Translations under genes and position numbers: made by a program
Shown here: positions 5,370 through 20,161 of the stretch, piece by piece
How the letters are laid out: each line of letters opens with the position of its first letter
How positions within the stretch are numbered: the first letter of the stretch is position 1
The notes under the pieces: model-generated
Told to the model about the DNA's origin: nothing
Databases searched by the model: none
The model's input: only the letters and a program-made list of their open reading frames with translations
Origin: a virus
Length of the DNA stretch: 64,000 nt
Virus record (IMG/VR): IMGVR_UViG_3300043399_000509
Reading direction: 5' to 3' (one strand)

Positions 5370-6911
5370 TTATCCTTTTAAAAACTTATTGCGAAGGAAC
5401 TGCTCAAATGATTCTTTGATTGGCTTTGGTGATTCTGTTTCTTCACGAATACCAATGGCTCTGTTCATAATATCACCTGTTGTTTCTGGTCTTCTCACCA
5501 TTTGTCTTGACGTGGGTCTTGACATTCCTGGTCTCTGAGACATTCCTGGTCTAGTTGCTTGTCTTTGTATTGGCCTTACAGATGATGTTCCTGGTTTAGA
5601 TACTGCTCCAGGTCTTTGTACAGACTGCTGTGGTATATTTGGGGTTGTTTTTCCACCGGGTTTTGTTACTGGACCAGAAGGCTTTGATTTTCCAACATCA
5701 TATCCTTTTGGTAAAAGTGAATTTGTTTGGGATGGGGTCCCAAGAGCACCAGTTCTACCTTGTGGGGATACTGAAGGACCTTGTGGTGCAGCAGGTACTG
5801 GACGTTTTTGTTGTGCACCAGATAATGGTCCGCTCTTTGAAGTAACAGGACCGAGATTTCCAGCAGATGTTGATCCACCCTTTAGTGGTGTTACCACATT
5901 ACTTGTTCTGTTGCCTTGACCAGTTGTTAAAGGTGTTGAACTGCTTGATGAAGTTGGTGCAGTAGCAGCAGGCTTCGCTAATGGTTCAATTGAAGGTTTA
6001 TTATCTACATTTTTTAGTGGAATTGATGGAGCATCTCTAGATTTACCATAAACATTTGTTTCACCTGCTTCCATCAAACCAAGAATTTCAAGTTGTTCTT
6101 CTGTAAGCGAACCAACAAAATTAGTAAACGCAGATTCATCACCAGACTCATAAACTGCGACCAATCTTTCTTCAAGATTTGTGCGGATTTCTTCTAGGAT
6201 TGATTCAATATCTTCATTCATCTTATCTTTCTTAGATAGCCCAGCCTGACTTAGAGCAATAGCAACTGCCTGCTTTTGGCCTTTCTTGGTCATAGGAACA
6301 GTCTTTTCTGACTTACCAATATGTTCCTTACCCTGCTTCCACTTGTGCATAACCTTGGCAACCTTTTCTTTTTGTGACTCAGTTGCCTTTTCTTCTTCAA
6401 CCACACCACGGCCTTTTAGAACATCACCATGTGTGATCTTATTTGGATCACCATGAAGCTTGGCCAATGCTCTTTCCTTGGCGTTTCTTGGAGTAGAACC
6501 TTCGTCCTTGGCTTCATCCAAATCCTTTGGATATTCAATCTTCTTGCCTGTCATTCTCTTGTATGCATCTTCGTGTTCTTTCTTCTTAGCAACAAGATGA
6601 GGCATTCTTCCACCAGATTTGATTGCCTTATGAATGCGGATAGCTTCGGCTCTGTGATGCTCTGGTGTTGCAGGAGACGATTTTTTATCCTCGTCCTTTT
6701 TATTATGAGATTCTTCTTCCATGGCACATCTCTTTGTTTCCTCAAAGATGGCATCATATTCAGCATGGTATTCATGAGGTAGGGCTTTCTTGGAAACAAC
6801 TCCAAAATGCTCATTCACAGCGGTTTCTACTCTGCGTAGAATATCGTTGTGTTCCATCACATTCTTGATTGATTCAACGAGTGGGTCATTCTTATTGGTC
6901 TTTGTGAACAT
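5370..6911 (-). CDS. Putative internal head / prohead-core-like protein
   Basis: Charged modules separated by LDE/VVEE/MNE linkers; P/G/S/T-rich tail; late promoter. Confidence 0.55.
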   Translation of the reverse strand: MFTKTNKNDPLVESIKNVMEHNDILRRVETAVNEHFGVVSKKALPHEYHAEYDAIFEETKRCAMEEESHNKKDEDKKSSPATPEHHRAEAIRIHKAIKSGGRMPHLVAKKKEHEDAYKRMTGKKIEYPKDLDEAKDEGSTPRNAKERALAKLHGDPNKITHGDVLKGRGVVEEEKATESQKEKVAKVMHKWKQGKEHIGKSEKTVPMTKKGQKQAVAIALSQAGLSKKDKMNEDIESILEEIRTNLEERLVAVYESGDESAFTNFVGSLTEEQLEILGLMEAGETNVYGKSRDAPSIPLKNVDNKPSIEPLAKPAATAPTSSSSSTPLTTGQGNRTSNVVTPLKGGSTSAGNLGPVTSKSGPLSGAQQKRPVPAAPQGPSVSPQGRTGALGTPSQTNSLLPKGYDVGKSKPSGPVTKPGGKTTPNIPQQSVQRPGAVSKPGTSSVRPIQRQATRPGMSQRPGMSRPTSRQMVRRPETTGDIMNRAIGIREETESPKPIKESFEQFLRNKFLKG

Positions 6912-6981: not shown

Positions 6982-9822
6982 CTATTCCTCACAGTTCCAT
7001 TTCCTTAGGGATAGGGCCTTTCTGGTTGGACGGCCCTTTTCATCCTTCATTGGTCCTGGCATTCCACCCATACGTGCACAGAATGATTTACGACGTTTCC
7101 ATGACTTGCTGCCCTTCTTGAGCTTTGATGGCTTGGTGGTTACAGCAGTCTGTAGTTTAGAGCCGGGGTTTTCACGTCTATATGATTCAACGCCCTTTTT
7201 ATTTAATCCACCTTCAGGGTTTTTACCTTCTTTACGTTGCCATGCAGGAGATTCTTCACCAACAACACGACCGTCATCATCATCCTTATATCCCTGTGAT
7301 GCGACAGTTCCTTGAGCAATAAACTTGTCCATACCTTCACGAAGCTGAGTAAATGTCTTCTTTTCCTCTGCAATACCATATGTGCCAAAAGGATATACTG
7401 ACATATAGGCACCCTGAGACATTGGTGATACACCTGTTAATCCACCAATAAGAGATGGAGACTTGGCAACACCAAACTCAGGACCAATACTATCAGAGAC
7501 AGGTAATCCTACAGCACCAGAAGCAGTATCTAAAATACCATCCTCCTGGGCTAATACTTTTTTCTTCTTTACAAGCTTCATTTGTTTCTTTGATTCAGGG
7601 ACAAGTGGGTGGCGTATGATAGTTCTTCCTGGTAGAGTATCGCCAGCATCTGGAGCATTATGACCTGATACAATAAACTTTTCAAATTCTTCATTGACTG
7701 ATTTCCAGCCACCACCCTTGGACTTATACCATTTTGATGCCCAACCGTTTGCGTATGCTGATGGATATACATCAAACTTTTGCTTGGCCAAGGATTTTGC
7801 TCTTGCCCATAGTTCTGGATTGGTTGGCTTATTTTCTTCTTCAAGCTTACCCTTCCCAAAGTTGGATACATTTATTGGCTTACCCTTTCTTTCAGGATTA
7901 GGATCATTTCTTCTTTTTGAGGACACGGCGGCTGCTCTTTCTTTTTTGGTTAGCTTTGCTCTTTTTTCATTAGACATACACTTTGGTTTTGGTTCACCTT
8001 CTTCACGGGCACAAGGACCAATGGCTTCACCTTTTGCATTGATTCGCTTCCATCCACCCTCTGGATGCTTGGGATCAAACCATTTTCTAAGGTCCTCTTT
8101 TATGTTTTCTGGTCCAACAGATGTCTTGCGTATTCTAACTAACTTATCACCAACAGTTTTATGTGTTATGATTGGTGTGCCTTTTGGACCTTTCTTTCTT
8201 GGACCATGGAAACCAGAACCCCAATGCTTCAATCCAAGTGATTTGGCCTGTGCGGTCACCTCTGGAGAAACAACAGATGTGATTGTTTTCTTGGTTGGTT
8301 TTTTTGGTGCTGGTGTGCTTGTTGGTGCTGCTACTGTTGGTTTTTTTCTTGCCTTTAGCTTTTGTTCAAGGGCTGTTGCACCGATAGGATTGGATGGTTT
8401 TGATCTTGCCCATTTGCGGATTGTCTTGAATACATTAGTAAACTCACCTTTCTTGGCAAGCTTTTCTTCTTTACTAGCAGTGGAAAGATCAAGTGAGTTA
8501 TCCACATGATGAAAATTTTCATCACCAAACATTTTTTTGTAATGAGGTATTGACTTCTGGGCTTTCTTCCAATACTCTGATCTTGTCTTTTCAGGAACAG
8601 TCCGGCCACCACCTTGACCACGAGCAATATTTCTTTGTTTTGATACAGCATCTGAGGTATTGACAAATACCATTTTGGTATCATAACCCATACCTTCAAG
8701 CTTATCTTTCATCTTTTTGATTTTTTCATGATCATGGCCTGTGGTGTTTATGATGATACCATTTCTTGCATTCAGGTGTAGGTTCTGTCTTGTCTTGGTA
8801 ATACCCTTGGCCTTTTCACGGACTGATGTTCTTTTTGGTTCTTCTTCTGGGGGCATGGTCTTAGAAAGACCTTCCTTACCAAGTAAATGCTCAAAGGCAT
8901 GATCAGAGTTGATTTCGGTTAGGCCATGGCCATATCCTGTTTCTTTGGCAACATAATCCTTACCAGAACCAGGACCACCAGCATAAAACAGAGCCTTATA
9001 TCTTGCTCTGTTTGGTGCCATTTTTGTCATTTCAGCAAGATATTCTTCAACAAGAGCACCAGACTCAAACATCTTTGGATTCTTTTTTCCGTACTTACGC
9101 ATTATTACTCCTGCCTCTGCGTTTGCTTTGTTTTCGATATGACTGCCTGTCTTGCCAGATTCTTCCACATTCTTATCTGTAATCTCACCTTTTTCTTTTT
9201 GACTATGATGAACCAGTTCATGAGCCAATGTCCTTAGCACATCAATGGGATGTCTGTTCTTTGTTTGTATGACAATCTCACTTGTTGCGGGAGAGTATGC
9301 ACCAAAGCTTGAAAACTTTTCATCAGGTGATTTATATCTTACCTTGGGTAATGATTTGATGCCCAGATGATCTGATGCAAACGACACAAATGAGTCCATC
9401 ATAGGACCAAACTCTTTGTGTGTGATTTCTTCGTTCAATGCTTTGATTGTGTTTAAATATTCTTTTGACATTCGTAATAACTCTAATATTGGTAAATCGA
9501 CAATATACGCTTCGGTTGATCCATCCTTATTATGATTTGCCAACCAACGATGATGACCATCCAAAACATAATCATCATTAGACACAATAATCTTATTGCT
9601 TCTATCATCTTCATTTTGAAACATTATATTAGTGATCTTGTCGGCATCAAACTCAGATTGGGTTGACTTGAGATTATTTGTATCAACTGTTCCAGTTTTG
9701 CATTTTACGCCCTTGGTCTTCAAATAGGAAATAAATCCTTTGATGTTATCAGCAGAAAACTGAGGCATCAACTCTCGACTAAGGGTCATTCCTATTTTTG
9801 GAACAGCAATCTGATTTGTCAT
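6982..9822 (-). CDS. Multidomain protein: ParB-like, HExxH zincin, P-loop kinase (zeta-toxin-like) and basic phage modules
   Basis: VLDGHHRW; LAHELVHH; GGPGSGKD with RNIARG; C-terminal SFCARMGG...LRKWNC. Confidence 0.7.
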   Translation of the reverse strand: MTNQIAVPKIGMTLSRELMPQFSADNIKGFISYLKTKGVKCKTGTVDTNNLKSTQSEFDADKITNIMFQNEDDRSNKIIVSNDDYVLDGHHRWLANHNKDGSTEAYIVDLPILELLRMSKEYLNTIKALNEEITHKEFGPMMDSFVSFASDHLGIKSLPKVRYKSPDEKFSSFGAYSPATSEIVIQTKNRHPIDVLRTLAHELVHHSQKEKGEITDKNVEESGKTGSHIENKANAEAGVIMRKYGKKNPKMFESGALVEEYLAEMTKMAPNRARYKALFYAGGPGSGKDYVAKETGYGHGLTEINSDHAFEHLLGKEGLSKTMPPEEEPKRTSVREKAKGITKTRQNLHLNARNGIIINTTGHDHEKIKKMKDKLEGMGYDTKMVFVNTSDAVSKQRNIARGQGGGRTVPEKTRSEYWKKAQKSIPHYKKMFGDENFHHVDNSLDLSTASKEEKLAKKGEFTNVFKTIRKWARSKPSNPIGATALEQKLKARKKPTVAAPTSTPAPKKPTKKTITSVVSPEVTAQAKSLGLKHWGSGFHGPRKKGPKGTPIITHKTVGDKLVRIRKTSVGPENIKEDLRKWFDPKHPEGGWKRINAKGEAIGPCAREEGEPKPKCMSNEKRAKLTKKERAAAVSSKRRNDPNPERKGKPINVSNFGKGKLEEENKPTNPELWARAKSLAKQKFDVYPSAYANGWASKWYKSKGGGWKSVNEEFEKFIVSGHNAPDAGDTLPGRTIIRHPLVPESKKQMKLVKKKKVLAQEDGILDTASGAVGLPVSDSIGPEFGVAKSPSLIGGLTGVSPMSQGAYMSVYPFGTYGIAEEKKTFTQLREGMDKFIAQGTVASQGYKDDDDGRVVGEESPAWQRKEGKNPEGGLNKKGVESYRRENPGSKLQTAVTTKPSKLKKGSKSWKRRKSFCARMGGMPGPMKDEKGRPTRKALSLRKWNCEE

Positions 9823-10845: not shown

Positions 10846-11859
10846 TTAATTATTCGGTCTATATTTCTCAGAATAAGTAGTTTGCTTTACATCACCCAAT
10901 TCTTCTTTACCTGACGATGACGTATTTGGTGTATAGGTTGCAATATGATTTGCCCTTTTACCAGTTCTATGACCATAAAACCTCAGCCCACCTCGCTCTC
11001 TTTTTGCTTCTATGTGGTCGAATGAGTCTAACATATGTTTCCAATTTTCGGTGTGATTTTGAATTTCAGAGCCAGAAGAACCTTTACGTCTTATAGTAAT
11101 TTCATCAAGTCCGGGTGTTTCTGCACTTCTTGTCAATCTTTTCATGGCCATCTTTTTCTTTTCATGGTCCATTCTATTAAAACCTTTTTGGAAAGTATTC
11201 AATAGAACATCTCTTATACCAGACCTAACTTTTCTAAACTCTGGACCTTTTCTTTCGCCCGCTGAACCCAATCTCTTTTTAATTTTTTCTGTTGACTTTT
11301 GTGCCACTGCTTTTATTTTTCCACGTCTTATTTGTTTTTCTTCGGGTGATTCTTCTCCTTTGAACATACCTCTCCTCAATAAACCTAACATTGGACCAAT
11401 GGTCATTTTTCTTAGACTTGGTGTGGATTTGGCATACTTGGCTTGAATACCGATGTGCTTATTCTCATTTGGTTTGCTTGTATTGTGATGAGGATGTTGG
11501 ATGATAACATCTGCTGAACTTTCAATTTTATCTGTATTTGGGTGTTTCATCACTTCAGCAATTTTCTTTTGGCTATCAGCAGTATGAATAGCTTTCATAC
11601 CAGGGACTATTCTTCCCATCTTGTTGTAATGATCATATATTTTTTTAGCATCTTCCTTGGCGTGAAACTCAACTGTGTTCTGTGGGGTTGCTGGTTCTGG
11701 TGCTTTATCAGTTCCATGATGCTGTAAATGATGATTTAGATAATTGGTGAGACTTAGTTCATATTGTTTATCAGGCTTTATAGATGGTTTATTATCACCA
11801 AATAAATCTAATTGCTTTGGATTTTTTGCTTCTGCCAATATCTGTCTAAATGATTTCAT
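10846..11859 (-). CDS. Putative packaged protein, possible PD-(D/E)XK nuclease
   Basis: MKSFRQILAE targeting-like start; SADVII...IGIQAKY motif. Confidence 0.5.
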   Translation of the reverse strand: MKSFRQILAEAKNPKQLDLFGDNKPSIKPDKQYELSLTNYLNHHLQHHGTDKAPEPATPQNTVEFHAKEDAKKIYDHYNKMGRIVPGMKAIHTADSQKKIAEVMKHPNTDKIESSADVIIQHPHHNTSKPNENKHIGIQAKYAKSTPSLRKMTIGPMLGLLRRGMFKGEESPEEKQIRRGKIKAVAQKSTEKIKKRLGSAGERKGPEFRKVRSGIRDVLLNTFQKGFNRMDHEKKKMAMKRLTRSAETPGLDEITIRRKGSSGSEIQNHTENWKHMLDSFDHIEAKRERGGLRFYGHRTGKRANHIATYTPNTSSSGKEELGDVKQTTYSEKYRPNN

Positions 11860-11894
11860 CTATGTTATCTCTGCTTACTGGATGGATAGTATAA

Positions 11895-11902
11895 TATTTA
11901 TA
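11895..11902 (-). promoter_or_regulatory. T4-type late promoter
   Basis: TATAAATA. Confidence 0.7.
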
Positions 11903-12018
11903 TTATGGTGTTATCACACACTTGTTATTTCATGTTACTGGATTTTTGAGACAATTTGTCATATATATGTATGTGCGTCAATACGGCGTAGCATAATAAT
12001 TATATGGAGAATATTCGT

Positions 12019-12108
12019 ATGAAGAACTGGACAAAGCCTGAAGTTCGTGAAGTAGGGACAGCAATGGAAGTTACATCATATCTACCAGCAGAGATTGATA
12101 TCATCTAA
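12019..12108 (+). CDS. pqqA: Pyrroloquinoline quinone precursor peptide PqqA
   Basis: MKNWTKPEVREVGTAMEVTSYLPAEIDII: WxxP leader plus E-x3-Y core (MEVTSY); GGAGA RBS at 12006-12010; downstream terminator. Confidence 0.9.
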   Translation: MKNWTKPEVREVGTAMEVTSYLPAEIDII

Positions 12109-12113
12109 ACAGT

Positions 12114-12138
12114 AAGGCGGGTAACCCCCGCCTTTTTT
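12114..12138 (+). terminator. Intrinsic terminator between convergent pqqA and dps
   Basis: AAGGCGGG-taacc-CCCGCCTT followed by TTTT. Confidence 0.8.
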
Positions 12139-12580
12139 ATTTCTTTAATGCTGTGACCTTCAACATCCAACGATGCTTAAAGTGAGCAGTCAGTCTATCC
12201 TGTAGAAAGTTTGAATATCCATACATCTTTTCTTCTTCAGCCATTTCATAAGCCTCAGTAAGTGTTTGAATAACCTTCTCATTTGTGTCGTATAGATTTG
12301 ATACCATATTCTGTGGTGTAGGAATCGAATCACCTTCTTCAAGGGTTGTAAAATCAATAATACGACGCAATGAACCTGGAGCAAATGAATCAAGTTGTCT
12401 CACATGCTCTGCAAGATCATCAACAGCAGTATGAAGTTCTTCATAAAGATCACCAAAGAAATCATGTAGTTGTGGAAAGTCTGGGCCAACAACATTCCAA
12501 TGATAACTATGTGACTGAAAATACATGGTGAATGTATCTGCCAAAACGACCTTGGACTTTTCGATTAGTTCTGCTGACAT
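12137..12580 (-). CDS. dps: Dps / ferritin-like DNA protection protein
   Basis: HSYHWNVVGPDFPQLHDFF, DDLAEH, KHRWML. Confidence 0.92.
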   Translation of the reverse strand: MSAELIEKSKVVLADTFTMYFQSHSYHWNVVGPDFPQLHDFFGDLYEELHTAVDDLAEHVRQLDSFAPGSLRRIIDFTTLEEGDSIPTPQNMVSNLYDTNEKVIQTLTEAYEMAEEEKMYGYSNFLQDRLTAHFKHRWMLKVTALKK

Positions 12581-20085: not shown

Positions 20086-20161
20086 TGGCTCCCCAACCTG
20101 GATTTGAACCAGGAACCTGATGATGCTACAGTCATCTACTCTACCGTTGAGTTATTGGGGA
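20086..20161 (-). tRNA. Atypical tRNA: Asn-like body, 8-nt anticodon loop CUGUAGCA
   Basis: Perfect acceptor, D, anticodon and T stems; U1-A72, G73, CCA. Confidence 0.8.

Follow-up and report, generated by a model that had tools for sequence, protein, structure and literature searches.

The question raised by this locus is whether a very short reading frame in a viral genome, antisense to its neighbours, is a functional pqqA gene, and what a phage could gain by carrying it on its own. PqqA is the peptide that bacteria consume to make the cofactor PQQ, one peptide being used for each PQQ made, and methanol, alcohol and glucose dehydrogenases depend on PQQ as their cofactor. The window analysed here, i.e., the whole stretch of 64,000 nucleotides, is part of an IMG/VR record of 156,381 bp (38% GC) that has direct terminal repeats and is rated complete. 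The genome encodes the T4-like functions gp43, gp41, UvsX, gp44, gp62, RegA, and Hsp20, of which the gp43 polymerase is approximately 51% identical to that of cyanomyophages and the gp41 helicase is 57-61% identical to those of cyanophages, Melnitz, and HTVC008M. Within this complete phage genome pqqA is a host-type metabolic gene with viral genes on both sides and neighbours that belong to phage families, and its own composition is phage-like (GC 40%, GC3 34%). Judged by its gene content, the record is a bona fide T4-like phage that carries pqqA.

The gene and its immediate surroundings comprise the following features.

10846-11859, minus strand: gene encoding a 337-aa protein, divergent from pqqA
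11860-12018, no strand assigned: intergenic region between the 337-aa gene and pqqA
12006-12010, plus strand: ribosome-binding site GGAGA, read directly, 8 nt 5' of the ATG
12019-12108, plus strand: pqqA coding sequence, 29 codons and a stop (protein P0001)
12028-12030, plus strand: Trp4 codon of pqqA
12061-12063, plus strand: Ala15 codon of pqqA, at the site of an otherwise invariant Gly
12067-12069, plus strand: codon of the cross-link residue Glu17 of pqqA
12079-12081, plus strand: Tyr21 codon of pqqA
12114-12144, plus strand: intrinsic terminator, consisting of a G+C-rich hairpin (12114-12134) and a T-tract
12137-12580, minus strand: Dps/ferritin gene, convergent with pqqA (Pfam Ferritin, 91.8 bits; phrog_3636)

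Translation of the plus-strand frame at 12019-12108 yielded exactly the peptide that an earlier note on this DNA had quoted, and the GGAGA motif that the note had placed 8 nt upstream was found at 12006-12010. The strong terminator claimed just downstream could be substantiated, as a hairpin of 8 pairs (6 G-C) at 12114-12134 precedes a T-run and has a folding energy of -14 kcal/mol (z = -4.1 versus shuffled sequences); its T-tract covers the stop codon (12137-12139) of the convergent Dps gene. The opposite orientation of the gene was also borne out, since all sizeable neighbours are encoded on the minus strand, as is nearly every other gene of the window. With a ribosome-binding site and a terminator of its own, pqqA resembles the autonomous expression unit that had been proposed. 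An in-frame ATG at 12004 would give a 34-aa form and lacks a ribosome-binding site, while the starts of the homologues all align with 12019 and not with 12004. Inspection of the upstream region yielded no convincing promoter for pqqA, with neither a sigma-70-like site directly upstream nor a plus-strand T4 late motif. The T4-type late-promoter motif TATAAATA that is present in 11860-12018 lies on the minus strand, ends at 11902, and serves the leftward 337-aa gene. Genome-wide this motif occurs 30 times on the minus strand and 4 times on the plus strand, against approximately 11 expected per strand, and its surplus on the minus strand matches the leftward orientation of the genes.

Elsewhere in the window, a 946-aa protein (6982-9822, minus strand) has a Zeta_toxin/AAA_33 kinase-like domain together with DUF6321 at its C-terminus, and several related contigs encode short segments of it at 79-88% identity. 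A tRNA predicted by ARAGORN at 20086-20161 (minus strand), of undetermined identity and with a four-base anticodon (gtag), belongs to a group of five clustered phage tRNA genes (Arg, Met, Leu, Gly).

Assignment of the peptide to the PqqA family could be examined with the two profiles that the earlier note had suggested, and P0001 scored above the curated cut-offs of both. Against Pfam PqqA (PF08042) it reached 35.6 bits (cut-off 21.1, E = 8.9e-9) with the full 19-position model covered, and against the NCBIfam equivalog TIGR02107 it reached 32.9 bits (cut-off 20, E = 4e-8). When the 34-aa in-frame form was compared by phmmer with 1.84 billion representative proteins, 156 matches were obtained, of which approximately 150 are PqqA peptides at 60-79% identity; three long matches (P0003, P0069, P0146) were rejected as repeat proteins. 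P0001 is a small peptide of 29 aa, within the norm of about 20-40 aa for PqqA, and both sequence hallmarks that had been pointed out are there: the W-x-x-P leader as WTKP, and the Glu-x3-Tyr pair that provides the PQQ skeleton as Glu17 and Tyr21 within an EVTSY block. The core from Trp to Tyr spans 18 residues, equal to that in all 465 other PqqA occurrences that were collected. The frame is very short, and since short open reading frames are plentiful, a chance frame or a non-coding sequence that merely resembles PqqA deserves consideration; this explanation is, however, scarcely credible for a frame that passes both curated profile cut-offs, matches some 150 PqqA peptides, and has a start context and a terminator that fit a gene. 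The profile scores and phmmer matches effectively refute it, and on the evidence of its sequence 12019-12108 is confirmed as a genuine PqqA-family gene.

The rest of the pathway is apparently not encoded by the phage. The earlier note had stated that the window contains no pqqBCDE genes, which is true and extends to the complete 156,381-bp genome, where profiles for PqqB, PqqC, PqqD, PqqE, and the PQQ_2 dehydrogenase repeat gave no match at E <= 1. The genome-wide search that had been advised for pqq genes and PQQ-dependent dehydrogenases thus returned neither pqqB/C/D/E nor a PQQ_2 match, the result for PqqC being a weak negative because the PqqC profile also matched none of 14 control genomes. 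Linkage of pqqA in cis to pqqBCDE is common among bacteria and is not required for membership of the family.

The type of PqqA points to a particular bacterial group. The core-tail block of P0001 was found in at least 120 genome contigs, overwhelmingly from Hyphomicrobium, Hyphomicrobiaceae, and Filomicrobium, with a GC content at the locus of 51-68% and with 29-residue peptides of which 20-22 positions are identical to P0001. The nearest peptides are orphan PqqA copies of Hyphomicrobiaceae (e.g., L097:1085-1174, minus strand; approximately 76% identity, 22/29), which share with P0001 the 29-residue length, the Trp-to-Glu spacing, 10 of the 11 leader positions, and the whole of the core and tail, which begins at Glu17 and contains the SYLPAEID block. 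These copies resemble the phage gene in standing alone, apart from pqqBCDE, whereas they reside in chromosomes of 51-68% GC and the phage gene in a genome of 38% GC. The earlier note had likened the peptide to the Methylobacterium type, which holds in part: that type, encoded at L002, L003, L300, and L313, has MEVTSY and AEID in common with P0001, but its overall identity is approximately 58% (about 15/26), its leader reads WSAP, and its tail reads TFN, so that the Hyphomicrobiaceae type (22/29) is nearest. The Methylobacterium-type peptides on the IMG/VR contigs L002 (4409-4495, minus strand; a 265,895-bp contig) and L003 have 29 residues and are alphaproteobacterial, and these contigs differ from the phage in their GC content of 55-62%.

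Orphan pqqA genes are typical of the bacteria with the nearest peptides. Hyphomicrobium sp. LHD-15 (G001) contains 8 dispersed pqqA copies, one of which is beta/gamma-like (L287), Filomicrobium insigne contains 3 copies, a Hyphomicrobium contig (L044) carries three pqqA genes in tandem, and in L038-L042 pqqA is found alone next to guaB. In a methylotrophic production strain, five pqqA copies have been reported, three of them stand-alone, and transcription of two copies goes up with the rate of PQQ synthesis (PMC9851590).

These similarities suggest a Hyphomicrobiaceae-like PQQ system and make an alphaproteobacterial methylotroph a plausible host. In a sample of 400 genomes drawn evenly from the class, a type close to P0001 was detected only in the Hyphomicrobium centre genome, and a different alpha type was detected in a 1.4-Mb genome of 28% GC. 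A comparison of the 23-aa peptide that is found in other phages with 400 genomes of the phylum gave no match above 70% identity. The core proteins of the phage are equally distant from cyano-, pelagi-, and methylo-myophages. The low GC content of the phage was considered as a case against a high-GC host, the gap being 20 points, and this argument was rejected: Caulobacter has about 67% GC, and its T4-like phage Cr30 has 38.4% GC (first 50 kb). More generally, the class of the PqqA peptide might serve as a host marker.

Comparison with related phages indicates how the gene arrived. The closest syntenic IMG/VR relatives (L005 and L006, the latter within a complete record of 163,885 bp) encode a Dps that is 61% identical and retain the gene order around it, with no gap and no pqqA after Dps, which argues that pqqA is a lineage-specific insertion of approximately 280 bp. 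No PqqA match was obtained in the complete 163,885-bp record or in four other records that share Dps, using the same search that detects pqqA in the present genome. The Dps/ferritin gene (12137-12580) itself is common to 34 IMG/VR contigs at 41-63% identity and is a frequent accessory gene of this phage group. The search for a close phage relative with the same pqqA found none among the viral contigs and metagenomes scanned; relatives sought through the upstream 337-aa gene were likewise not found, and metagenome scans with the exact MEVTSYLPAEID block and with an AT-rich-codon version of it gave no close relative. Only two other viral contigs contain the Hyphomicrobiaceae-type block, L164 (60% GC) and L165 (36% GC); the latter encodes a 29-aa pqqA of this type with the canonical Gly (5893-5982) at the end of a 6-kb contig and has no gene in common with this phage. 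A tblastn search of P0001 against GenBank phages gave a sole match, within the glycosyltransferase of a Streptomyces phage (E = 0.4), which was dismissed as chance.

The phage peptide departs from its bacterial counterparts mainly in one segment. Residues 12-16 read VGTAM in P0001 and QEVGL in Hyphomicrobiaceae-type bacteria, with the Trp-to-Glu spacing kept, and outside this segment only residues 3 and 28 differ from the bacterial consensus. As a consequence of this rewriting, the position two before the cross-linked Glu is Ala15, whereas it is Gly in 465/465 other PqqA occurrences (183 distinct peptides), a set that comprises bacterial and viral PqqA and was assembled with search patterns that did not impose Gly. 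This conserved Gly is no formal criterion of the family, and P0001 is the peptide that departs from it; no mutational data on the invariant Gly were found in the published literature. With a rewritten five-residue linker and Ala15, the competence of the phage peptide as a substrate is not assured, and the single Gly-to-Ala change constitutes a natural test of the role of the invariant residue.

Substitution patterns of the phage gene were determined against a set of 128 distinct bacterial genes that share its Hyphomicrobiaceae type. For the codons outside 12-16 this gave a pS of 0.86, a pN of 0.10, and a pN/pS of about 0.11, values in which bacterial and phage branches are mixed, and for codons 12-16 it gave a pN of 0.67. 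Synonymous sites between the phage and the bacterial genes are saturated, while conservation extends over the leader, the E-x3-Y core, and the tail. Because pS is 0.86 against a pN of 0.10 and the composition is phage-like, the peptide appears to have been constrained while the DNA diverged; this is supportive of constraint on the leader and the core/tail, in a comparison that spans both branches. Published hydrogen-deuterium exchange (HDX) and NMR work assigns the binding of PqqD to the leader of PqqA and that of PqqE to the C-terminal core/tail region with the Glu and Tyr (PMC10906245). By analogy, the conserved parts of the phage peptide would be its functional parts, i.e., those that contact PqqD and PqqE.

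Taken together, these data favour a role of phage pqqA in supplying precursor peptide to the PqqD/E/B/C pathway of the host, to which we assign a probability of roughly 0.6. According to the proposed sequence of events, a cassette of approximately 280 bp, with its own ribosome-binding site and terminator, would have been inserted between a late gene and the Dps gene. The phage PqqA would be translated during infection, the host chaperone PqqD would bind its N-terminal leader, a cross-link between Glu17 and Tyr21 would be introduced by host PqqE, and PQQ would be completed by PqqB/C and proteases of the host. Because each PQQ costs one peptide, an additional phage-driven copy would maintain or increase the supply of the cofactor, which could then serve PQQ-dependent periplasmic dehydrogenases (methanol, alcohol, or glucose) and sustain the energy supply as host transcription declines. 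We infer expression of the gene, recognition of its product by the host enzymes, and an effect on the PQQ level. Under this role, the fact that a phage carries pqqA would point to the supply of precursor as a limit on host energy metabolism during infection.

Several other roles were weighed against precursor supply. The cassette could be a neutral passenger of host origin that has little or no effect or is unexpressed, as its absence from the closest syntenic relatives, the lack of an identified promoter, and its status as a singleton subtype among viral contigs might imply; we regard this as unlikely, since pqqA has an intact frame with an intact ribosome-binding site and terminator, its leader and core show no protein-level change although its composition is fully phage-like, and unrelated phages have taken up pqqA time and again, which speaks for a benefit. 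The rewritten linker raises a different prospect, namely that the peptide is a decoy or inhibitor, a poor or dead-end substrate that ties up PqqD/PqqE and lowers PQQ synthesis or radical-SAM turnover in the host. Such activity gains a little weight because the Gly two before the Glu, which is invariant in 465/465 other PqqA from bacteria and phages, is Ala here, and the clustering of changes in codons 12-16 (pN 0.67) with retention of the binding modules would also suit it. However, the Gly-to-Ala exchange is conservative, the profile scores are well above the cut-offs, the Trp-to-Glu spacing is exactly kept, hundreds of other phage-encoded PqqA have the canonical Gly, in keeping with use as a substrate, and it is not apparent what a phage would gain from lower PQQ, which together make inhibition distinctly improbable. 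It is similarly a long shot, and slightly more so, that the peptide is an evolved variant, either a dead-end PqqD/PqqE ligand or a substrate with altered processing, that would manipulate this RiPP-type cofactor pathway instead of feeding it.

The supply of precursor by phage pqqA can also be viewed against the distribution of viral pqqA in general. The core pattern of the beta/gamma type was found at 118 or more viral loci in IMG/VR, and all 118 of those listed are intact PqqA reading frames of 23-25 codons on contigs of 31-47% GC. A 23-aa pqqA is present in all Methylophilales phage records returned by a GenBank phage search (four Melnitz isolates, Venkman, P19250A, MEP301, MEP401, and MEP402), and five of these phages were inspected.

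L286:2998-3069: 23-aa pqqA in Melnitz
L345:1501-1569, plus strand: 23-aa pqqA in Venkman
L346:1501-1569: 23-aa pqqA in P19250A
L347:1501-1569: 23-aa pqqA in MEP301
L348:621-689: 23-aa pqqA in MEP402

In all five the pqqA frame is unannotated on its own strand, its product passes the Pfam cut-off (37-43 bits), and neither PqqD nor PqqE was found in these complete genomes. In Melnitz an opposite-strand hypothetical coding sequence (gp152) is annotated across pqqA, and in Venkman the locus-tag numbers jump over gp28 at the site of pqqA. A further 24-aa alpha-like class with an E-I-N-C-Y core was found on at least 115 additional IMG/VR contigs (within L350-L469, e.g., L351:7945-8016, minus strand; 31-41% GC), and 3 of 4 tested members scored above the Pfam PqqA cut-off, with the fourth just below. 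A peptide like this class is encoded in the 1.4-Mb alphaproteobacterial genome of 28% GC (L307). Phages thus appear to have acquired pqqA repeatedly and independently, in at least three peptide classes. Viral pqqA was already published in 2020 and is common, occurring in more than 230 IMG/VR contigs, and the present copy is a rare subtype; it is a Hyphomicrobiaceae-type case of a gene that phages of methylotrophs have often acquired, and because viral pqqA is published and common it contributes mainly breadth and no new principle.

Many of the contigs with the 23-aa and 24-aa classes are T4-like relatives with core proteins that are 40-67% identical to those of this phage. In several of them pqqA lies in the slot that regA/hsp20 and gp43 enclose, oriented as they are, whereas in this phage that slot is occupied by a glycan island and pqqA lies approximately 18 kb away. 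The pqqA of Methylophilales phages (e.g., L345:1501-1569, plus strand) and that of the present phage are both stand-alone genes in complete genomes without PqqD/PqqE. The Methylophilales phage peptide, however, has 23 residues, is of the beta/gamma type, and ends on a basic residue, whereas P0001 has 29 aa, and the 23-aa pqqA of the T4-like relatives is co-oriented with core genes, whereas the present gene is antisense to its neighbours. Among the papers searched, none connects PqqA with phages of Methylophilales, pqqA goes unmentioned in the paper on Melnitz, and a reservoir study from 2026 counts viral pqqA among the genes of phosphorus cycling. The nearest published system is that of the T4-like phages of Lake Baikal (35% GC), which carry PqqA together with methanol dehydrogenase and have Methylophilaceae as predicted hosts (Coutinho et al. 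2020, Microbiome 8:163, PMC7678222). The aquatic Baikal phage population VP_266, in which PqqA was read as an auxiliary metabolic gene, and the present phage are both T4-like, have a low GC content, and carry pqqA; they differ in that VP_266 encodes methanol dehydrogenase and has predicted betaproteobacterial hosts, whereas the present genome has no methanol dehydrogenase (PMC7678222). Viral PqqA was proposed by Coutinho et al. (2020) to boost the supply of PQQ (PMC7678222), and the role of precursor supply that we favour for the present gene would match that proposal.
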